From positions 18,577 through 82,576 of the forward strand of contig DJPH01000014.1 in NCBI GenBank assembly GCA_002439755.1: 64,000 bases of DNA, written 5' to 3'. This DNA is from Prevotellaceae bacterium UBA6417 (GTDB lineage: Bacteria; Bacteroidota; Bacteroidia; Bacteroidales; Bacteroidaceae). Shown in pieces: positions 24,683 through 35,506 of the stretch (positions within the stretch are counted from its first letter, which is position 1; each line of letters starts with the position of its first letter). The notes beneath the pieces are model-generated. The model was given only the letters and a program-made list of their open reading frames with translations, searched no databases and was not told the DNA's origin. A program made the translations under genes and the position numbers.

Positions 24683-27600
24683 ATGAAAGATATAAGAAGA
24701 AATTATTATTTGAGAAGGGCCTTCGGTATTGGTTTCGGCCTCATCTTCTTGACCGGAATTTCTCCTATGTATGCTCAAGACATCGAAGATGGTGATGAGG
24801 CAGAGGAGGAAGTAACGGAGCAAGTTGCCAAAAAACGCCCTTTGCCTGCCGGTCCTACTTATCAGATGAAAGAGATTTCCGGACAAATTTTTGATGCCGC
24901 TACTCGCAAGCCGCTTGCCGGTGTCCAGGTTCAGGCATTGAATGATATCCGTTATACAGCGATGACGGAAGAGGATGGGCGCTATAAGATATCTGTGCCT
25001 GTATTTGTTACTGCCTTGTATGTTGCTACACCCGAATACAATCCTGTTCAAGTGGCAATAAAGGATGGTCCGATTAATGTGAATTTATACAGTTCTGTTT
25101 TCAAATCGTTCTTCAAGAATGGTACGGAAGTCTTTAGGTCACAATCTGCAGCAACTGAAAATTCGTCAGCCTTAACTGTGGAGCAAGACATCGAAGGCCA
25201 GCTGAATGGAACAGTACGGACCATGTCGCGCGGTGGCCTGCCGGCACAAGGTGCTGCCATGTTCATCAATGGTTTCAATTCGCTCAATGCAACCGCTCAG
25301 CCTTTGGTCGTAGTCGACGGTGTCATATGGGACATGCAGTATGACCGCAGTGCTATTCATGCAGGTTTCATCAATAATGTCTTTGCATCTTTGGACCCTG
25401 AAGATGTGGAAAGTGTTCGTGTTCTTGATACGGGAACAGCTCTCTACGGTGCCAAGGGCGCAAATGGTGTCATTGAAATAACCACAAAGCGTGGCCGTAA
25501 CCGTGCAACAAGAATCGGTGTTCGCATTTATGGTGGAGTTGAAACTACGCCCAAGACATTGGATGTAATGAGCGGTAATCAGTATAGAAGCTATCTTACT
25601 GAGATTTTAGGCACATATGTTCCTTCCAATCCCAGTGATCGCTTGACATACTTGCAGCTGATTTCCAGCCGTCCTTTCATGAACGAAGATCCTAATTATA
25701 CGTTCTATGACATCTATCATAACAATGAAAACTGGCAGAAAGATCTTTATCACACTGCCGTAACTCAGAATTACCGAGTTAATGTGCAAGGTGGTGATGA
25801 GATAGCCATGTATGCGTTGTCATTAGGTTACACAAGTTCTGATGCAACAGCAAAGGATAACGATTTCAACCGTTTGAATATCCGTTTCAATACTGACATC
25901 AATATGACGGATCGTCTGTCAACAGCCTTTGACATCTCTTATTCGCGGTCGGCTTATAATATGCGTGACAATGGTTGGGCTGAGGATTATTCGAAGTCAA
26001 ACATCGCATCTCCTAATGTGTTAGGACTTATTAATGCTCCGATGATAAGCAAGTATGCATACTATGTGTATTGGGATGAAGCTCAGCAGAGAAACCTCTT
26101 GACTCCTGCCAGCAATATTTATGCCGGTAAGAATTATACCGATAGCAACAACCCGTTCCGTTTCGGTGAAGATTATGGTACTGCAGCTTTGGCCAATCCG
26201 TATTGGATACTTGAGAACGGTCAGGGTGACAATAAGAACTATGAAGAGCAGACACAGTTCACTTTGAACTTCAATCCCAAGTTCCAGTTGAACTCTTGGC
26301 TGACGATAGGAGATCGTTTCAGTTATGTCATGAACCGTACTTCTGAGCTCTATTATATGCCTAACAATGGTACCCCGCAGAAATTTGTTGATGGCTTAGG
26401 CGCTGTAACAAGTGCTGTAAGGTCTCAATTCGCTGATGAAAGTGCCATTGCAAATAACTTCTATTTGCATGCTGACAAGCATATGGGTGAGCATACGTTG
26501 TCTGCAACTGCAGGATTCCGTTTCAACACGTTTAACTTCTCGAACAGTTACACCAACGGTTACAATAACTCTAATGACAAGATGCCTAATTTGTCCTATT
26601 CTTTGCAGTATCTTACATATGGAGGTACCAATGACACTTGGACCAATCTTGCCTACTACCTGGATGCTCACTACAATTATCTGAACCGCTACTTCCTCGA
26701 TGCAACTGTAACTGCTGAGGCATCATCCCGTTTCGGCAAGAATACCAAGGAAGGAGTCAAATTGTTCGGTGTGAAGTGGGCTACATTCCCGTCGATACGT
26801 GCAGCGTGGCTGATATCATCTGAGCCATGGTTCAACTTCAAGCCGGTAAATTATCTGAAGTTATCTGCCGGTTATGAAGAGTCAGGTAACGACAATATCG
26901 ATTACTACGCAAGTCGTACATATTTCTCGAATGAAAAATTCCTGAATACTTCGACAGCTTTGACTCTTGCCAATATTGCCAATTCCGAAATACAGTGGGA
27001 GACGACCCGCCGCCTCAATGCAGGTTTGGAAACGAGCTTGTTGGACAATCGCTTGAACTTGGGAGTCAACTTCTTTTGGAGCAAGACATCCAATTTGTTG
27101 ACCTTGCAGAATCTGAACTATCTGACCGGTCTTCCTTCCATGTGGTCTAACAATGGTGCATTGAAGAATACCGGAGCCAGTGTAAACATCAGTGGAATAG
27201 TTGTCAATTCGAAGAATTTCACTTGGGAACTTGGTTTCAGTGTAGGCCACTATAAGAATGAAATCACCGAGCTTCCCGACAATGACCTTATGAAGCTGTA
27301 CAATCTGAATGAAGATGGCAGCAAGGGTGACATCTATAAGACATTCCAGGGTTATACGTCTTCCATTTATGGAACAAACAATATCCTGACCAGTGTCGGC
27401 AATGCCGCAGGTGTTTTCTACGGATATCAGACCAAGGGCGTTTTTGCTGACGAAGCAGAAGCATCAACAGCCGGTAAGTTCGGATATTTGAGATATCCAA
27501 CCGGTTACGTAGGAGACTCCTATCGTAATTTCAAGGCCGGTGATGTTCATTTTGTAGATCAGAATGGCGATGGTTGGATTTCAGAAGCCGATATGGTCAA

Positions 27601-28117
27601 GATAGGCGATCCTAATCCTGATGTATATGGCAATATATTCACGAGCTTTGGCTTCTTGAAGAATTTCAAGCTTGATGTCATTTTCAAATATTCTTTGGGT
27701 AATGACATCTATAACTACCAGGCTTCCCAACTGGAGCAATCCAGCAATCTGTGGAATCAGACAACGGCTGTTCTCAACCGTTGGACACACAATGGGCAAG
27801 TAACCGACATGCCTCGTGCTGTGCTTACGTCAAGTACTGAGTGGGTCAACAACGAACGGTTCTCAGACCGTTGGATTGAAGATGGCTCTTTCCTTAAGTT
27901 GAAGAAAGTACGTTTGACATACAAATTACCTCTATCACTCTCTTGGTTGCAAGGATTTACTGTTTGGGGTGAAGCAAACAACCTGTTCACCCTCACCAAA
28001 TACAGAGGTCTGGATCCCGAGGTTTCTTGTGGTAACGGTGTATTATATCAGGGTATAGATTCAGGAATGTTGCCTCAGTCCCGTTCTTTCAACTTTGGTG
28101 TAACTATTAACTTGTAA
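24683..28117 (+). CDS. SusC/RagA-family TonB-dependent transporter (module 2)
   Basis: 1,144 aa with a carboxypeptidase-regulatory-like domain, a plug (GANGVIEITTKRG) and a barrel with a C-terminal L. SusD follows after a 12-nt gap. Confidence 0.9.
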   Translation: MKDIRRNYYLRRAFGIGFGLIFLTGISPMYAQDIEDGDEAEEEVTEQVAKKRPLPAGPTYQMKEISGQIFDAATRKPLAGVQVQALNDIRYTAMTEEDGRYKISVPVFVTALYVATPEYNPVQVAIKDGPINVNLYSSVFKSFFKNGTEVFRSQSAATENSSALTVEQDIEGQLNGTVRTMSRGGLPAQGAAMFINGFNSLNATAQPLVVVDGVIWDMQYDRSAIHAGFINNVFASLDPEDVESVRVLDTGTALYGAKGANGVIEITTKRGRNRATRIGVRIYGGVETTPKTLDVMSGNQYRSYLTEILGTYVPSNPSDRLTYLQLISSRPFMNEDPNYTFYDIYHNNENWQKDLYHTAVTQNYRVNVQGGDEIAMYALSLGYTSSDATAKDNDFNRLNIRFNTDINMTDRLSTAFDISYSRSAYNMRDNGWAEDYSKSNIASPNVLGLINAPMISKYAYYVYWDEAQQRNLLTPASNIYAGKNYTDSNNPFRFGEDYGTAALANPYWILENGQGDNKNYEEQTQFTLNFNPKFQLNSWLTIGDRFSYVMNRTSELYYMPNNGTPQKFVDGLGAVTSAVRSQFADESAIANNFYLHADKHMGEHTLSATAGFRFNTFNFSNSYTNGYNNSNDKMPNLSYSLQYLTYGGTNDTWTNLAYYLDAHYNYLNRYFLDATVTAEASSRFGKNTKEGVKLFGVKWATFPSIRAAWLISSEPWFNFKPVNYLKLSAGYEESGNDNIDYYASRTYFSNEKFLNTSTALTLANIANSEIQWETTRRLNAGLETSLLDNRLNLGVNFFWSKTSNLLTLQNLNYLTGLPSMWSNNGALKNTGASVNISGIVVNSKNFTWELGFSVGHYKNEITELPDNDLMKLYNLNEDGSKGDIYKTFQGYTSSIYGTNNILTSVGNAAGVFYGYQTKGVFADEAEASTAGKFGYLRYPTGYVGDSYRNFKAGDVHFVDQNGDGWISEADMVKIGDPNPDVYGNIFTSFGFLKNFKLDVIFKYSLGNDIYNYQASQLEQSSNLWNQTTAVLNRWTHNGQVTDMPRAVLTSSTEWVNNERFSDRWIEDGSFLKLKKVRLTYKLPLSLSWLQGFTVWGEANNLFTLTKYRGLDPEVSCGNGVLYQGIDSGMLPQSRSFNFGVTINL

Positions 28118-28129
28118 AAATGCGAAACA

Positions 28130-30388
28130 ATGAAAAATAGATCGTTTATATCAATATTCGCCATTCTGTTTGCGGTCACTTTCACGGCTTCATCTTGCGA
28201 TGACATGCTGACGCCTGAACTGAAACGTTATAGTGAAAACTATGCTCAAGACTCGGTTTATTCTGCTTTCGGTATATTGAAGAGTCTTCAGAATGTTGGT
28301 TCACGTTCAGTCTTGCTTGATGCAGCGCGCAGCGACCTTTCCACGACGGGCATCTATACCTCTGATTCCATCAAGAGTATAGCTGATTTTGAGAATCCCG
28401 AAGATGGTGACAATAAGTTGCTCAATGCTGCCGATTATTACCATATTATCAACTCCTGCAACTTCTATATGGCGCGCGTCGACACTTTGCTTGAAAAGAA
28501 CGGTGTGCCTGAGATGAAGCGAGAGTATGCACAGATTCAGGCCATCCGTGCCTGGACATATTTGCAGCTTGTGCGTTTCTATGGAAGCGTACCGTTCATC
28601 ACCGAACCAGTAGCCACTACCGAGCAGGCCACTTATTTGGAAAAGAATGCACCTCGTGTCAACAAGACCAATCTTGCAGATATGCTTCTTGAGGCCGGTC
28701 TGTACCGTGCATACGAGTTGCAGAAGCAGTATGGCATGCCCAATTATGGTGAAATAAACAATGGTTACAGCCGTTATACTACTTTGCGCATGTTCGTGCC
28801 TATCCAGTTGGTGCTGGGCGATGCCTACCTGATGCAGAATCAGTATCAGAAGGCTGCAGAGACTTATTATGATTATCTGACTGATACCAAGATTGGTTCT
28901 CCAAATGACAGGAATGAAGTATTCAAGGTGGGTTATGAGACGAATTATCGTGACGGACAAATCGCCGGTTATACTTTGAGATCCAATGATTGGGCAGAAT
29001 GCATGAAATTCAATACGGATGAGCAGCTTTTCGTAACAATTGGCGCTGCCAATTCCACCATGGGTAAGATGCTGACTGACGTAGCTCAGACGTTCGGCTT
29101 CAAGACTTCTTCAACTGTGAGCGGCTCTTCGGGTTCTGTATCAGTAGAGCCCAACGAGAGCTACCAGCAGATACTTCCGTCGAAGAATTACTTGTCGTTG
29201 AACGAGCAGCAACATTATTGCAAATGGGAGTCGCAGAACGGTGTAGAAACAATCATTTATTTCGATGATTTGGCAGATGGCCGCTTGTATGGCACTGCAC
29301 CCGAATATGAGTTCACACGTGGTGAGAAATCACGCATCATCGACAAGTATGCGATTGGTTCGATGCTTTATTCCTCTACGTCTTGGGGTGCTTCGTCCAA
29401 TTTCTTCAGCATGCAGTATCATATCACGTTGTATCGTAAGGCCTTGCTTTATTTGCGATTCGCAGAAGCCATCAACCGTATGGGCTTCCCGCAGATAGCT
29501 TTCGGTGTATTGAAAGACGGCCTTTGGCGTCAGACTTTCCCGACATTGGACTATAAGACCATCGATGGTAACAAGTATTATATCAACAAGAAAGACACTT
29601 TGGGCATATTCCTGCCCAAGAAGGATGAGGCCGGCAATGTCATCGTAGACTCCTTAGGTGTGGCTGTTCTCGATACATGTCTGTTTGCCGACGGTTATGC
29701 TGCCGACACAACTTTGATACAGAGGAATGTTCCCTATCTTTCTTCAGAGCCTAAGGCTTATGCCGGCGGTATGTATTACGTGACACTCGATGAGATGGTG
29801 CGTGCCGAGAAGTACAAGTTCCTCTCTGAGTTCTGGACCAAGGACCTGTGGAATAATCAGGAGTTGGAGAGTGGTAATTTCCGTGCCGGTATTCATTCGC
29901 GCGGCTGTGGCAACACGGGTGGTCATCAGGATACGGTTTACACTTATGCCAAGATGGTTGCCAAGAAAGTTGCTGCCAACCGTGCCCGTCTGAACGGCCT
30001 GCCTTATCAGTCGCAGGTTGAGTTGGAAAACAGATTGCATATAGGCGACATGCTGTTGACTGAATCGGCTGTGCTGCCCGACTCAGTTGCCGCTCAGTAT
30101 GCTGATGTCACAAGAATCACAGATGATGAGATTATCAATGCTGTAGAAGACCTTATTATTGACGAGTGCGCCCTTGAAACAGCGTTTGAAGGTCACCGTT
30201 TCACTGACTTGCTGCGTTTTGCCGACCACAAGACCGATGCGGGCATGAATGGTAACGACTGGTTTGCATGGAAAATGGCTCGCCGCAACAATTCTGCAAC
30301 AGACGATGCCTCTATGTACGATGCAGGCATTTATGCCAAGATGCAGGACGACACCTATAAGTTCTTCCAATTACCGAAGAAAAAATAA
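28130..30388 (+). CDS. SusD/RagB-family lipoprotein (module 2, long form, 752 aa)
   Basis: Lipobox (TASSC) and SusD-like helices (QAIRAWTYLQLVRFYGSVPF; ECALETAFEGHRFTDLLRFA). It is adjacent to SusC-2. Confidence 0.8.
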   Translation: MKNRSFISIFAILFAVTFTASSCDDMLTPELKRYSENYAQDSVYSAFGILKSLQNVGSRSVLLDAARSDLSTTGIYTSDSIKSIADFENPEDGDNKLLNAADYYHIINSCNFYMARVDTLLEKNGVPEMKREYAQIQAIRAWTYLQLVRFYGSVPFITEPVATTEQATYLEKNAPRVNKTNLADMLLEAGLYRAYELQKQYGMPNYGEINNGYSRYTTLRMFVPIQLVLGDAYLMQNQYQKAAETYYDYLTDTKIGSPNDRNEVFKVGYETNYRDGQIAGYTLRSNDWAECMKFNTDEQLFVTIGAANSTMGKMLTDVAQTFGFKTSSTVSGSSGSVSVEPNESYQQILPSKNYLSLNEQQHYCKWESQNGVETIIYFDDLADGRLYGTAPEYEFTRGEKSRIIDKYAIGSMLYSSTSWGASSNFFSMQYHITLYRKALLYLRFAEAINRMGFPQIAFGVLKDGLWRQTFPTLDYKTIDGNKYYINKKDTLGIFLPKKDEAGNVIVDSLGVAVLDTCLFADGYAADTTLIQRNVPYLSSEPKAYAGGMYYVTLDEMVRAEKYKFLSEFWTKDLWNNQELESGNFRAGIHSRGCGNTGGHQDTVYTYAKMVAKKVAANRARLNGLPYQSQVELENRLHIGDMLLTESAVLPDSVAAQYADVTRITDDEIINAVEDLIIDECALETAFEGHRFTDLLRFADHKTDAGMNGNDWFAWKMARRNNSATDDASMYDAGIYAKMQDDTYKFFQLPKKK

Positions 30389-30413
30389 GAAAGTTCTTTT
30401 TCATATCATTTGA

Positions 30414-30445
30414 CCCGGGCAAAACTTGCCCGGGTTTTTATTTGG
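30414..30445 (+). terminator. rho-independent terminator closing the SusC/D operon
   Basis: 9-bp stem CCCGGGCAA/TTGCCCGGG with a 3-nt loop, followed by TTTTTATTT. Confidence 0.8.
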
Positions 30446-30519
30446 TTTGTAAGTAAGCAGTTACCGGTTCAATGTGATTCTTTCATTTAGCATACTTGCA
30501 GAGTATACGGTTCGTGCTT

Positions 30520-30667
30520 GCGATGTGTACAGATCGCAGGGTGCGATGTGCCGCATTGCAGGGTGCGATGTGTACAGATCGTTGTATGCGATGTGTATAG
30601 ATCGCAGGGTGCAATGTGCCGCATTGTAGGGTGCGATGTGTACAGATCGCACGGTCTGATGTGCCAT
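30520..30667. repeat. intergenic array C: 6.5 tandem 22-23 bp units (68-bp higher-order duplication)
   Basis: The units begin GCGATGTGTACAGATCGCAGGGT / GCGATGTGCCGCATTGCAGGGT. Block 30520-30587 is nearly repeated by 30588-30655. Confidence 0.9.
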
Positions 30668-30903
30668 TCCTTGATTTAGGTTGACTCGGATTTGAGCCGG
30701 GTCCAGGCAAATGTTGACTCCGGCTTGACGTTATTACCGATTGAGGTTGCTTTCATCCTTGTCCCTGTTTGGGGTCGCTTCACCGGATATTATCCCGTTC
30801 TGGGACTGACTTGATGGCGTAACGTGAAAGGGAGAACGACAGGACAAACAGCCTTTTCTTTCAGAAAAAGGCCTTGCTCGGCTTTTGTGTAAGCAAGAAT
30901 TAT

Positions 30904-30911
30904 TATATTTG
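30904..30911 (+). promoter_or_regulatory. -7 box (TATATTTG) upstream of the ATG at 30969
   Basis: Exact TAnnTTTG, 58 nt upstream of the ATG that opens a signal-peptide-like ORF. Confidence 0.5.
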
Positions 30912-30968
30912 CAGCTGAAAGATTACAGGGAGCTTTCATTCACTCAGATTTCATTATTAATTCATAAT

Positions 30969-31022
30969 ATGAGAAGATACATTTATTTATTGACACTCCT
31001 GCTATTGTGCCCCCCCTTTTGA
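30969..31022 (+). other. 17-codon ORF encoding the N-terminal part of a signal peptide (MRRYIYLLTLLLLCPPF*), out of frame with the downstream 1,499-codon ORF
   Basis: Direct translation. The frame breaks at the C7 tract, and one extra C would fuse it to the long ORF. Confidence 0.6.
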
Positions 31023-34000
31023 GTGCGGCTAAGGCAGATGACAATGTACCCAAGGCGGATATATTGGACGTCGTATTTAACAGTGACGGAACTGCAGTCG
31101 ACATTTCGCCGATGCAGAACGAAGTGCAGGTAATCGGCCAGTCGGCCATTGAGGTCTACTTCAACGAGACTTACAAAATGAACATTCCACGGTTTACCAA
31201 TCCGTGGAGCGGTACTGCAACACACTATTACAAGGTGGATTATGAAAACAACGAGGCATTCAAGTCGGCTTTGGCCGATGGCCATACCTTAGAAACCCTG
31301 GTCAAGGCAGACTATAGTGGTTCTCTTCCCAACAAAGAATGCAAACCTTTCAGTTCGCACCAGACTGGTGGTACAGGCCTGATGCTTTGTAAAACGGGCA
31401 AGAGTGTTAATGGTGGAAACGAATTTACGTTCCTTCCTTATATTGGCGAGTCTTATCGTTATACAGTTAGCGGTGTAACGCCTCAACCTAAGATATTCTA
31501 TCATGTTGTAGGCGTGTGGAACAAAGAAGAAGGCAAAACCTATATATACGTAGATGGTGAATTAAAAGGAACTACCGAAGTAGAAGGCGAGTTCAAATTT
31601 CCTACTGCCAAAAGCGGCTGGTTTGGCATCGGCTGCGACCCATCCGGCAATAAAGGTAATACTTCTTGGACAGGTGAGGTAGCTATTGCGCGCATCTATA
31701 ACGACCCTCTTACGGCAGACCAGGTGGCTGCCCTATACAAGCAAGTAGATGTCGGTGTTGATTATTCGCAGATGCTCCAGAATACGATAGACAGCATTGT
31801 TTCCATCGATCAGAAATATGCCATTGGCAATGACCCCGGCTGCTATACGCAAGAAGTGTTTGATAAGTACAATGCAGCTTATCTTGATGTTTTCCAAAAG
31901 GCACAGAATGCGGCCTACAATGGAGTTAACAAGGAAGAATACGAGATGTTGCGTTCACAGTTGCTCAATGCCTACAATGAGCTTCAGACGCAATATAATC
32001 CGTTGGCCGAAGGCTATTATTATATCGTAAGCAAGCAAGCCGCGTTTGCATCTCTTCAACCTGACGTGCAGAAGGCAATGTATGCCAAGGCCGACAGCAG
32101 GCTGTATTGGGGAAATCTAGACATGCAGAAGGCAATGTATGCCTTCCATCTTCGTAAGACCGACGATGGCAACTTTACCATCCAGAATGTTGCCACGAAA
32201 GAATATATCCGCTGTGTGACTGACGAAACGGGACACCATACCGACGCCTCCAGCTTTCAGGTTGAGCTTTCCAAAGAGCCGGATGCCAGCTACGAACAAT
32301 TCGTCAGATTCCTTGGCGTAGGTCAGTTCAACATCGGCAACACGGGCAATTCCCGCCCCTACAACGCTGACGGCAATCAGAGCGGCTATGGAATAAGCGG
32401 ACGCGTGACCACATGGAACGGAGCTCTCAATAGCGAGTCTGCCTGGGCTTTCAGCCGCATCACCGACGATGCACTAATCAAAGAATTTGAAGAAAACGGA
32501 GCAAAGCAGGTAATGGCCGACAGACTGCAGGATGCCATCACTGCAGCTCGTACATCAAGTGCCAAGGCCTATGACTATACCAAGCTCATCACTGATGCGG
32601 GGCAGATATCCTCAAATGCACAAAGTACAACCAACGGATCTACATATGCGGGGTTGATAGATGGACAAAGCGTAACCATCTTCCATTCTGTTTGGGACGG
32701 AACTTTCGCCACACCTCAGGTCGAAGGCCTTGGATGGCATAACCTGCAATTCAATATAGGTCGCCCTGTAAGCAAGATTAAATTCCATTTTGATGGCCGC
32801 GACAACTCAGACGGCTATCACGACAATCCCACCCACATCACCCTATATGCTACCAACGATGACAATCTTGGTGCCAGCACCGCTGCAGCCGATTCGGCCA
32901 TGTGGACTGAAATCGTAGATATGGGGCAGAAAGAATACGGTTTCCCCGGAGACCAAAACCTTGTGTCGTATGACTCTCCCGAGATAGACCTCAAGGGCTC
33001 TTACAAGTATCTTCGCTTTGTGGTGAAGCATGTGTCTACGCAGGAAACAAAGCGTGTCAACAAGTTTGCCACACCGAGCGTTACCGGTGTCACATTCAAC
33101 TTGAGCGAATTCCAAATCTATGATGCCGTACCGGCCGCTACTTCCGAATACTACAAAGTGCCTGGCATGAAAGAAGCTTGCGATGCGCTCGATGCTCTTA
33201 TCTCAGCTGCACAAGAAAAGATGACAAACCTTACTGTGACAGAGGAAGACATCCGTGCCATAGAAGAACAAGCCGTCAAGATAGAGGCACTCTATGTAGA
33301 CCGCGAATTCTTTGGCAATCAACTTGCAACGTTGCTTCAACGTGCCGATGGACTTTATAATGAAGTGCGTGGAACGAGTGTTCCGCTTGTGCTCAACGCA
33401 TCACAGCTGAGCACCAACAGCGTCAGTTCGTCCGATTATGGAAGTCTCGAACATCTGATAGATGGCCAGATAGACCAAAAACACAATTTCCACTCGGTAT
33501 GGATTACTGACCCGATGAAGAATGCCAACATCACTCCCGAAGAGTGGGAGGCTGCCATGGCTTCTGCCGGAAAGACCTTCGTAGGTCATGGCTATCATAA
33601 CCTGCAAGTAAAATTGAACGAACCGCAGTCCAAGTTCTGGTTTGAATATTACAGCCGCACGGGCGATTCCTATATCGACAATCCGAACGACATAGAGATT
33701 TATGTCACAAACGACGATGAGCTGGGTGCCACCCCTGACCAGGCCGATATAGACAAGTGGACCCGCATTACCGAGCTGACCGAAGGCTTCCCCGGTGTGG
33801 TGGCAGGTGTCCGTTATGTCTCTCCCGAAATAGACCTTGGAGACAGTTATAAGTATATTCGCTTTGTCATCAAGAACACGGCCATGGTCGGCACTGTATC
33901 CAATCGCACATTCGCAAATCCCGAAGTAACCGGCATTACCTGGAGCATCGGTGAAATGCAGCTGTATTCAGGCCTTAGTCCGGAACGTTGCCAATACAAC

Positions 34001-35506
34001 TATATAGCGGGAATGAAAGAGGCTTGCGATGCCATGAAAGCCCTCTACGATGAAGGCAGCAAGATGGAAAAACTGCAGATGGTCAATAGTGAGTTCAACG
34101 ACAAGTTTAGTGCCGCCATTGAGGCTGTTGTTGCCCTGTATGCCGATACTACCGAGTTGGTTCAGCTCTATAAGGAAAAGAAACTCTATGGAGCCAATAC
34201 TATAGTTGATGCAACCGAGATAGGTTGCCTTAACAGCGAGGAAAACCTTGTTGCATACAACGAAGCCATTGATGCCGCAAGAGCCTCCGTCGATAGCAAA
34301 AAGCCCGAGAAGGCCTCAATTGCCAAAGCCGTAGAAGATATAAAAGTCGCCTATACTACATTGATGGGTAATATAAACAAAGTAGAGACCGGCAAGTGGT
34401 ACTATATCGTTAGCAAGTCCAATTTGGCCTATTGTGCCGATAAAGCCATCTATATGAAAACGGCCAATAATGGCTCGACTATCAGCTTCGGCCTTTATAC
34501 GGCAGACGACGGTGCCACCTATACTGAGAATCCTTATGCCATGTGGCGCATCGTTCCCATAGAGGGCACAAGCTACTATAGCATCCAGAACCTGGGTACG
34601 GCTCACAATTTTGGTCCGTCATTGGGCAAAGGAACTGACTATAAAGTTCTCGTACAGAACGAGCCTTCTCCCTATCGCATCGATTACATAGGAAAAGGCC
34701 AGATACAGATGGTGTCCATCAACGATGACAACAAAGAGGGACATCAGATACATGCACAGGAAGATGGTAGCGTAATCGTTCCTTGGTCTACAGGTCTTGA
34801 TGGTGCTTCTTGCTGGACATTCAAAGAAGTAGATGCCGGTAGCATTGCCGCAGCTTTCCCTGTAAAGGAAAACAGCATCCGCATCCAGACACTGCCTTAT
34901 GACGTGCCTGCCGGTGTTACGTCCATCATGAATCTAAACGACGGCATCCAGACTTATGCTGTGAAGAACCTGACAATCGACGAAGCTACCAATACTACTA
35001 CACTTGAACTCACCTTGCAGGAAGAGGTCAAGGCTGGTGTGCCCTTTATATTGCAGTGTGGCGATTATAAGGCTTACAGTGCTGACGCTATAGATCGGTA
35101 CTTCCTCACTCCGCTGCCCGAAGAGGTAAGTTCTGCGGCTTCCGAAGCCAACGGCCTTATAGGAACGCTTGACGGTCTGACATTGAATAAGTCAGGTTTC
35201 GGCTATATCGACAATGACGGTCTGAAGGCTACCACATCGGCAGCATTCAGCATTGCAGGCCAACGTGGTTACATCGATCCTTCCAAGGTGAAAGCCGCTG
35301 AAGGCACCACCGACTTGGTTCTGACACTTGAAGGCGGCCTTATCAATGGTATCCAGACTGCTCAAGTAGCCAAGGCCACAGACAAAGTGAATGTCTACTC
35401 TGTGGATGGTAAGCTGATAAAGCGCAATGTGAAAGCTACAGAAGCATGCAAAGGCTTGAAGAAGGGCGTTTATATCATCGGCAAGCACAAAGTTGCCGTG
35501 AAGTAA
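31007..35506 (+). CDS. large T9SS-sorted lectin-like surface protein (LamG-like, 2x discoidin/F5-8C-like and 2x YYIVSK modules, C-terminal T9SS sorting domain); frameshifted relative to its signal peptide
   Basis: LamG-type segment (YHVVGVWNKEEGKTYIYVDGELKG...EVAIARIYNDPLTADQV). Two paralogous modules run about 32585-33225 and 33390-34070 (LIDGQ...FHSVW...HNLQ...YKY(L/I)RFV(V/I)K...(V/I)TG(V/I)T...E(F/M)Q(I/L)Y). The C-terminal VNVYSVDGKLIKRNV...LKKGVYIIGKHKVAVK matches the T9SS CTD pattern. The ORF as sequenced starts at GTG 31007 and has no signal peptide. Confidence 0.7.
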   Translation: MPPLLSAAKADDNVPKADILDVVFNSDGTAVDISPMQNEVQVIGQSAIEVYFNETYKMNIPRFTNPWSGTATHYYKVDYENNEAFKSALADGHTLETLVKADYSGSLPNKECKPFSSHQTGGTGLMLCKTGKSVNGGNEFTFLPYIGESYRYTVSGVTPQPKIFYHVVGVWNKEEGKTYIYVDGELKGTTEVEGEFKFPTAKSGWFGIGCDPSGNKGNTSWTGEVAIARIYNDPLTADQVAALYKQVDVGVDYSQMLQNTIDSIVSIDQKYAIGNDPGCYTQEVFDKYNAAYLDVFQKAQNAAYNGVNKEEYEMLRSQLLNAYNELQTQYNPLAEGYYYIVSKQAAFASLQPDVQKAMYAKADSRLYWGNLDMQKAMYAFHLRKTDDGNFTIQNVATKEYIRCVTDETGHHTDASSFQVELSKEPDASYEQFVRFLGVGQFNIGNTGNSRPYNADGNQSGYGISGRVTTWNGALNSESAWAFSRITDDALIKEFEENGAKQVMADRLQDAITAARTSSAKAYDYTKLITDAGQISSNAQSTTNGSTYAGLIDGQSVTIFHSVWDGTFATPQVEGLGWHNLQFNIGRPVSKIKFHFDGRDNSDGYHDNPTHITLYATNDDNLGASTAAADSAMWTEIVDMGQKEYGFPGDQNLVSYDSPEIDLKGSYKYLRFVVKHVSTQETKRVNKFATPSVTGVTFNLSEFQIYDAVPAATSEYYKVPGMKEACDALDALISAAQEKMTNLTVTEEDIRAIEEQAVKIEALYVDREFFGNQLATLLQRADGLYNEVRGTSVPLVLNASQLSTNSVSSSDYGSLEHLIDGQIDQKHNFHSVWITDPMKNANITPEEWEAAMASAGKTFVGHGYHNLQVKLNEPQSKFWFEYYSRTGDSYIDNPNDIEIYVTNDDELGATPDQADIDKWTRITELTEGFPGVVAGVRYVSPEIDLGDSYKYIRFVIKNTAMVGTVSNRTFANPEVTGITWSIGEMQLYSGLSPERCQYNYIAGMKEACDAMKALYDEGSKMEKLQMVNSEFNDKFSAAIEAVVALYADTTELVQLYKEKKLYGANTIVDATEIGCLNSEENLVAYNEAIDAARASVDSKKPEKASIAKAVEDIKVAYTTLMGNINKVETGKWYYIVSKSNLAYCADKAIYMKTANNGSTISFGLYTADDGATYTENPYAMWRIVPIEGTSYYSIQNLGTAHNFGPSLGKGTDYKVLVQNEPSPYRIDYIGKGQIQMVSINDDNKEGHQIHAQEDGSVIVPWSTGLDGASCWTFKEVDAGSIAAAFPVKENSIRIQTLPYDVPAGVTSIMNLNDGIQTYAVKNLTIDEATNTTTLELTLQEEVKAGVPFILQCGDYKAYSADAIDRYFLTPLPEEVSSAASEANGLIGTLDGLTLNKSGFGYIDNDGLKATTSAAFSIAGQRGYIDPSKVKAAEGTTDLVLTLEGGLINGIQTAQVAKATDKVNVYSVDGKLIKRNVKATEACKGLKKGVYIIGKHKVAVK
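31010..31016 (+). repeat. C7 homopolymer at the frame junction
   Basis: Seven consecutive C (31010-31016) followed by T4. Confidence 0.95.

Follow-up and report, generated by a model that had tools for sequence, protein, structure and literature searches.

In Neisseria, the regions of pilC and opa that encode the signal peptide of a surface protein contain a repeat tract; the opa repeat is the pentamer CTCTT, and mismatch repair is present in this genus. Here, we describe a similar arrangement in a 64,000-nucleotide stretch of DNA, hereafter called the window, from Prevotellaceae bacterium UBA6417 (GenBank assembly GCA_002439755.1, contig DJPH01000014.1, positions 18,577 to 82,576 of the forward strand). 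A run of seven cytosines (C7) was found in the signal-peptide codons of a gene for a 1,512-amino acid lectin-like surface protein, and this run is very probably a slipped-strand switch, that is, a contingency locus. Like pilC and opa, the locus would combine a slippery repeat, located where a surface adhesin gene encodes its signal peptide, with a tract length that sets the reading frame and turns translation on or off; likewise, several paralogues would be switched independently in a host with mismatch repair. Unlike them, it belongs to a gut commensal of the order Bacteroidales, its cargo consists of laminin G (LamG) and CBM32-like domains with a tail resembling the sorting domain of the type IX secretion system (T9SS) and bears no relation to pilC or Opa, and its switching is predicted from sequence comparisons.

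Promoter tracts acting as a "volume control" represent a second type of switch, known from porA and opc of Neisseria meningitidis and from the poly-C tract of Bordetella fim. Similarly, paralogues of the present gene carry promoter tracts of eight to ten G or C residues, one of which is C6, C7, or C8 between identical strains. The tract of the gene itself differs from these in being translational; the promoter likeness holds for the paralogues, where the effect on transcription is putative. Campylobacter jejuni and Helicobacter are not known to have MutS/MutL-type mismatch repair. Their poly-G/C phasome comprises about 20-30 tracts in capsule, lipooligosaccharide, flagellar-glycan, and surface genes (PMC8437040, PMC8355987, PMC2823697). 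The genome examined here resembles theirs in having 26 tracts, with G/C runs of 8-10 nt, which are both intragenic and intergenic, are enriched in glycan and surface genes, and in several cases are in the OFF state. However, it encodes MutS and MutL, and many of its tracts occupy a fixed position 5' of the Bacteroidetes -7 box.

In Bacteroides, capsules, SusC/D proteins, and fimbriae undergo phase variation through invertible promoters (PMC12632263, PMC11868660), and reviews treat phase variation in Bacteroidales only as inversion-based (PMC11868660, PMC12632263). A preliminary description of this stretch, made from its letters alone, had likewise named invertible promoters as the mechanism mainly described for the order, in agreement with these reviews. 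Like the invertible promoters (invertons) of this order, the present locus would serve to turn surface structures on and off stochastically, but it is not flanked by inverted repeats, its orientation does not vary in 18 assemblies, and the mechanism is different. Full-text literature searches turned up no description of homopolymer contingency loci for Bacteroidales; a 2010 paper on B. fragilis merely speculated about a run of four C's. Since the mechanism itself is classical, and the order and the gene family are new for it, the advance lies in taxon, gene family, and scale rather than in principle.

Reading frames around the C7 tract

The ATG at 30969 opens a frame that reads MRRYIYLLTLLLLCPPF and ends at a TGA (31020-31022). 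This segment (30969-31022, plus strand) is taken to hold the genuine start codon together with the N-terminal portion of the signal peptide. Within it, the uninterrupted C7 run (31010-31016) is followed by four thymines (T4, 31017-31020), and the two together form the predicted hypermutable tract (31010-31020, plus strand), which ranges over C6-C11 and T2-T4 in the 18 alleles described below. The gene body (31007-35506, plus strand) comprises 1,499 codons as sequenced, starting from a GTG at 31007, and 1,512 amino acids when the gene is ON. The tract covers codons 14-16 of the signal peptide, and it lies in the 5' coding region with a length at the slippage threshold of at least about 7 nt.

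The preliminary description had placed the ATG, the C7 run, and the 1,499-codon frame correctly to the base. It had taken the GTG as the sole start of the long frame, which did not hold, as a TTG at 31019 is a second possible start in that frame and is chosen by gene callers in C9 alleles; its point that no export signal results was borne out, since neither start yields a signal peptide. The TGA follows after 17 codons in the C7 reading; hence, judged from its frames, the gene is OFF in the window, as had been supposed. The description had also predicted that one additional C would give MRRYIYLLTLLLLCPPLLSAAKA/DDNVPK. Indeed, such a protein is present in public assemblies, encoded by the C8 allele, and the ON proteins P0010 and P0011 begin at the equivalent of ATG 30969. 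The N-termini of paralogues (MRKFIFTLSLALLATLIPRVSQA/DDNVPKADILDVVFNED and others) also align with the fused reading. By inspection, the ON allele encodes a Sec signal peptide with an MRR n-region, the hydrophobic core YIYLLTLLLLCPPLL, and an AKA/DD cleavage site.

In the mechanism that we propose, replication slippage would lengthen or shorten the C run by at least one residue. On the T4 background, C8 (or C11) would fuse ATG 30969 to the long frame and give a product with the Sec signal peptide followed by the LamG domain and two CBM32-like modules. Translation would end at codon 18 with C7 and at codon 22 with C9, so that no exported protein would be made. The gene would be ON whenever the total of C and T residues in the tract is a multiple of 3, and an interrupted tract, such as CCACCGCC, would lock it ON.

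Length variation of the tract among assemblies

The window was compared with 16 conspecific contigs and with the metagenome-assembled genome (MAG) of a sister species, an uncultured member of Bacteroidaceae from the Hadza gut; in these 18 alleles, the tract was read directly from the DNA. The conspecific contigs were reached through the 90%-identity cluster of the window protein and the contigs of its members. This cluster has 22 members with lengths of 1,495, 1,499, 1,511, and 1,512 amino acids. A flank-anchored pattern scan gave nothing in metagenome contigs and only the sister-species MAG in genome contigs.

The tract lengths were C6, C7, C8, C9, and C11, the adjacent T run varied from T2 to T4, and all three frames were seen. 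Five of the 18 alleles are ON and 13 are OFF, corresponding to proteins of 1,512 or 1,511 and of 1,499 or 1,495 amino acids, respectively. The ON alleles were C8T4 (ERZ26858442 and SRR29834398) and C6T3 (GCA_002477985.1, ERZ27300204, and SRR1747028). The OFF alleles were C7T4 (the window and ERZ27300200), C9T4 (ERZ26858219 and the sister species), C7T3 (GCA_002439945.1), C8T3 (ERZ26858467), C8T2 (four assemblies), C9T2 (two assemblies), and C11T2 (ERZ26858485). The samples in which the locus was recovered also included ERZ26858497, ERZ26859179, and SRR29834482. Among the proteins of the cluster, the 1,512-amino acid form has the N-terminus MRRYIYLLTLLLLCPPLLSAAKADD, which is exactly the fusion foreseen in the preliminary description, and the 1,511-amino acid form begins with MRRYIYLLTLLLLCPPLSAAKADD (...CPPLSAAKADD). 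The N-termini MPPLLSAAKA and MPPPLSAAKA belong to the 1,499-amino acid form and MSAAKADD to that of 1,495 amino acids.

These differences are confined to the tract in closely matched alleles. Between the C7 alleles (the window and L014) and the C8 alleles (L015 and L016), no difference was observed in the other 4,485 nt. On a second background, the C8T2 alleles (L021, L022, and L024) and the C9T2 alleles (L026 and L027) also showed no difference in the other 4,485 nt, and the C11T2 allele (L020) was 1 nt away from this background. Across all 17 conspecific alleles, 112 of the 4,485 sites were segregating. Because both pairs are otherwise unchanged, the tract length evidently alters on constant backgrounds; it thus varies naturally, and both ON and OFF alleles, as read from their frames, exist. 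Furthermore, C8 occurs on three backgrounds, and C7 and C9 on two each. That identical lengths reappear on separate backgrounds is the sole pointer towards frequent, reversible switching; slippage is presumed to be frequent and reversible within a lineage. The T run beside the tract (31017-31020 and the same site in L013-L029) is T4, T3, or T2 depending on the haplotype. Since C7T4, C8T3, and C9T2 each total 11, boundary C/T substitutions are suggested to act alongside indels.

The frame beyond the tract is maintained by purifying selection despite the OFF alleles. The ratio of nonsynonymous to synonymous divergence (dN/dS) was 0.03-0.17 among the alleles, and no internal stop was found in any of them over the 1,494 codons compared. 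For the window compared with the orthologue of the sister species, both of which are OFF, dS was 0.905 and dN was 0.121, giving a ratio of 0.13, again with no stops; the sister species retains the tract (C9) and an identical leader. Taken together, the occurrence of C6-C11 in three frames on otherwise identical genes and the purifying selection support the slipped-strand candidate raised in the preliminary description. Its suggestion to compare orthologues led to no single fixed break but to this range of lengths, the predicted C8 fusion included.

Domains of the encoded protein

The encoded protein contains a Laminin_G_3/ConA-like lectin domain at residues 134-241 (31406-31729, plus strand; PF13385, 56.6 bits against a gathering cut-off of 27.6). 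A sequence search of the PDB gave one weak match, to a pentraxin. Pfam and NCBIfam searches of the whole protein returned only the LamG domain and a sub-threshold TafC match. In segment-wise Pfam searches at E<=1, nothing reliable was obtained for the remaining modules described below and PF00754 gave no match; a paralogue has only a "faint" precomputed match to it. Because the sequence-family searches yielded no reliable match, fold prediction was needed. An AlphaFold2 model of the first of two internally duplicated modules of about 195 residues, built from an alignment of 18 copies from the genome's paralogues, had a pLDDT of 85.9 and a pTM of 0.85. Foldseek matched the model with a probability of 1.00 to CBM32 structures that bind galactose, N-acetylgalactosamine, or N-acetyllactosamine, with template-modelling scores on the target of 0.57-0.75. 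In the model, the module thus has the discoidin beta-sandwich fold. Two CBM32/discoidin-like modules are accordingly assigned to residues 529-722 (32591-33172, plus strand) and 796-1004 (33392-34018, plus strand), the second being a duplicate of the first (phmmer E 1e-39). The LamG domain and the two predicted modules support, at the level of domain and fold, the surface lectin named in the preliminary description.

The C-terminal tail (35363-35479, plus strand) resembles a T9SS type A sorting domain at sub-threshold scores (TIGR04183, 18.3-18.4 bits against 23; PF18962, 14.5 against 27). About 10 paralogues match the same region of the sorting-domain model at their extreme C-termini, and because of this recurrence the tail is likely to be a divergent T9SS C-terminal sorting domain, with membership of the family not established. 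The genome encodes SprA of the T9SS machinery (2,674.9 bits) and nine other proteins with a T9SS C-terminal domain above the cut-off. The preliminary description had called the protein a T9SS cargo outright. With SprA encoded and the tail matched below the cut-off of 23, this assignment is likely but not established. In the ON state, the protein would be exported along the Sec route and would then reach the cell surface through the T9SS.

Poly-C and poly-G tracts in the genome

The genome that holds the window comprises 2.38 Mb in 70 contigs, the window belonging to contig 28. Its C/G runs number 657 of length 5, 40 of length 6, 3 of length 7, 14 of length 8, 7 of length 9, and 2 of length 10, so that the distribution is bimodal. 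Because runs of 8-10 nt exceed those of 7 nt, a C/G run of at least 7 nt is far from a chance occurrence. Including the window tract, 26 such runs were counted. The others are located, as contig:position, at C10:10215, C11:23895, C11:27799, C15:65958, C17:42044, C22:234, C23:75398, C27:10745, C31:19556, C36:5565, C41:10397, C44:1749, C48:3059, C49:20538, C51:20721, C53:34638, C55:27617, C57:20299, C58:4390, C58:15782, C62:13281, C62:14447, C62:15481, C63:35385, and C65:26330. The flank TTAC(n)A / T(G)nTAA is common to many of them.

Six tracts lie 65-139 nt 5' of the ATG of paralogues of the lectin-like gene (contigs C11, C65, C23, C41, C48, and C49). Further promoter tracts precede genes for a GH27 alpha-galactosidase, a fasciclin lipoprotein, and other secreted proteins, and the promoter tracts as a whole, those of the six paralogues and of other secreted proteins, lie 65-187 nt 5' of the ATG. 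In 7 of 11 promoter-type tracts, a TAnnTTTG box begins 20-28 nt downstream of the tract. This suggests a promoter module composed of an AT-rich flank, eight to ten G or C residues, a spacer of 20-28 nt, TAnnTTTG, and 40-160 nt to the ATG of a gene for a secreted or surface protein (C65:26330, C48:3059, C49:20538, C36:5565, C55:27617, C44:1749, and C27:10745). The tract in this module would lie at about the -33 region, and its effect on transcription is putative.

Length differences were also observed at these promoter tracts. Orthologous tracts of this genome and the sister species were G8 and G9, C10 and C9, and G8 and G8. The tract 5' of a 1,460-amino acid LamG paralogue (C11:27799-27806) was C6, C7, or C8 in 10 other assemblies (L040-L049), several of which showed no difference in the gene (4,383 nt) and in 480 nt upstream of it, the tract length differing. 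In the sister-species piece examined for this paralogue (L030), no run of at least 6 nt was present, and the tract could lie outside the piece. The paralogue is recorded in 79 blocks of the public collection, and the organism is therefore common in that collection.

Within genes, a tract at C11:23895-23902 forms an in-frame C8 (T-P-P-T) immediately after the lipobox of a 586-amino acid Mfa-like fimbrillin/BspA-LRR lipoprotein, and it is likely to be a translational switch in its ON state. Five tracts lie inside genes of two apparent surface-sugar loci (C62:12267-16146; C58:3692-4636 and C58:15418-16136). These genes encode a pyridoxal-phosphate-type (PLP) decarboxylase, an NAD epimerase, a PglD-like acetyltransferase, an NmrA-like protein, and an Asp/Glu racemase, and the NAD epimerase and Asp/Glu racemase genes are each broken into two open reading frames exactly at the tract. 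A tract that does not fit this pattern of surface genes is the C8 at C10:10215-10222, which has a housekeeping setting 26 nt 5' of a murC-like start, after a murG-like gene, with no TAnnTTTG downstream.

We also considered a global mutator phenotype through loss of mismatch repair as the source of length variation. This was rejected, as MutS1 (904 bits) and MutL (491 bits) are both present; hypermutability would accordingly be local to the tracts and not global. In 40 relatives, tens of CCCCCCCC matches were counted in many members of the genus and almost none in others, a count too noisy for any quantitative conclusion because of overlapping matches, poly-C at contig ends, and varying GC content and completeness. 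Tens of matches were also found in other Bacteroidales families (G029, G030, G036, and G039). Long poly-C stretches at the ends of contigs (G009:C20, G009:C94, and G010:C1) account for some of the matches, and these look like sequencing artefacts.

From these observations, we propose, with confidence somewhat better than even, that this genus of uncultured gut Bacteroidales, and perhaps further families in the order, uses a homopolymer phasome in addition to invertons, giving phase variation a second layer. In this proposal, some 26 poly-G/C tracts, each acting independently, would switch or tune about 12 giant lectin-like T9SS-type surface proteins together with fimbrillin, glycosidase, and surface-sugar genes, mostly via the conserved promoter module and in some cases via a signal-peptide frameshift. 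Combinatorial surface diversity would thus arise within one strain despite intact mismatch repair.

Evaluation of alternative explanations

Several points weigh against a switch at the C7 tract. With 5 of 18 alleles ON, the fraction is close to the one-third that random lengths would give, and selection for the ON state at any one time is therefore not evident. Because mismatch repair is intact, any high rate of change must be intrinsic to the tract. The assemblies are metagenome consensus sequences, and some ENA/Logan pairs may share one sample. Finally, the tail on which T9SS display would depend remains below threshold in both sorting-domain models.

The first two of these points would also suit a tract that is hypermutable with slippage being only a mutational by-product, the OFF alleles being transient and either mildly deleterious or neutral. 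We regard this as unlikely. Between species separated by a dS of 0.9, a pure C run persists at identical codon positions, although proline can be encoded without such a run, and it lies inside the hydrophobic core of the signal peptide, which tolerates changes in length. On the scale of the genome, runs of 8-10 nt are commoner than runs of 7 nt, and they are concentrated in promoters and at the 5' ends of genes for surface proteins or glycans, at a shared distance from TAnnTTTG.

A sequencing or assembly indel, with C8 as the true sequence and the frameshift as an artefact, had been named in the preliminary description as the alternative to phase variation. Homopolymers are error-prone, and a C8 allele that is otherwise identical does exist. 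Nevertheless, C7T4 was also found in a separate assembly of another sample (L014, ERZ27300200), and most tract states occur in at least two assemblies from different assemblers (metaSPAdes-, MEGAHIT-, and Logan-type), so the lengths are reproducible. Among the same assemblies, none of 21 control A/T runs of 5-7 nt, taken from this locus and from that of a paralogue, varied in length, and C9 is found in the sister species. An error in this single call would still leave a locus that is polymorphic in nature; an indel error is thus very improbable.

Just as improbable is an explanation in which the OFF allele is partly expressed through RNA-polymerase slippage or +1 ribosomal frameshifting, so that the tract would set a level rather than an on/off state. 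The stop lies only 2-5 codons beyond the tract, and long homopolymers can cause transcriptional slippage. Well-documented cases, however, mostly involve A/T runs of 9 or more, and the length variation seen directly at the DNA level is sufficient. A conserved stimulatory structure was not noticed, with no search aimed at one. A fixed pseudogene that is dead and decaying is hardly credible and was rejected: neither the window nor the representative of the sister species is in frame, but no allele has a stop in the 1,494 codons compared, the dN/dS ratio is only 0.13 at a dS of 0.9, and five assemblies carry in-frame alleles. Length variation on identical backgrounds and the low dN/dS together rule against both assembly error and decay.

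The slipped-strand switch therefore accounts best for the locus. Switching may be beneficial through escape from antibodies or phages, or through tuned glycan binding beside the neighbouring SusC/D pair, and across the paralogue family the benefit would presumably lie in stochastic display, one gene at a time. If this is correct, part of the surface repertoire of abundant, uncultured gut commensals is under a mechanism that is invisible to inverton finders, and "pseudogenes" of Bacteroidales MAGs in which a G/C run breaks the frame are worth keeping rather than discarding. Gene callers would mis-start such genes, as here at GTG or TTG. Moreover, tract lengths in metagenomes would be a record of selection by antibodies, phages, or diet on surface lectins beside SusC/D transporters.

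Upstream region of the gene

A putative Bacteroidetes-type promoter precedes the gene on the plus strand (30884-30911), consisting of TTTG (30884-30887) and the -7 box TATATTTG (30904-30911). The box had been pointed out in the preliminary description as an exact TAnnTTTG match. It is indeed present and is kept in 17/17 other assemblies of the locus; in the sister species it is TACATTTG, the change being confined to an N position. By itself, however, the motif is weak evidence, as TAnnTTTG occurs 58 times in the window against 39.6 expected, a modest enrichment. When the window sequence around the promoter was inspected, no inverted repeats enclosing 30884-30911 were found, and the orientation of the locus was identical in 18/18 assemblies. 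An invertible promoter was rejected on these two grounds.

Upstream of the promoter and outside the switch, a SusC-like gene (24683-28117; Plug and CarboxypepD_reg domains) and a SusD-like gene (28130-30388; SusD_RagB and SusD-like_3) form a pair on the plus strand (24683-30388). These neighbours recur in other assemblies of the locus. The lectin-like gene lies 3' of the pair yet has its own putative promoter.

An open reading frame of 49 amino acids on the minus strand (30790-30939) overlies the promoter region and is annotated as a gene in several public assemblies. It had no family match and is probably a spurious gene call. Between the terminator hairpin of the SusD-like gene (30413-30435) and the promoter of the lectin-like gene, a tandem array was observed at 30519-30694. 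It is made of units of about 22 nt with GATC-bearing palindromes, which are organized into a 68-nt higher-order repeat with copies 95% identical.
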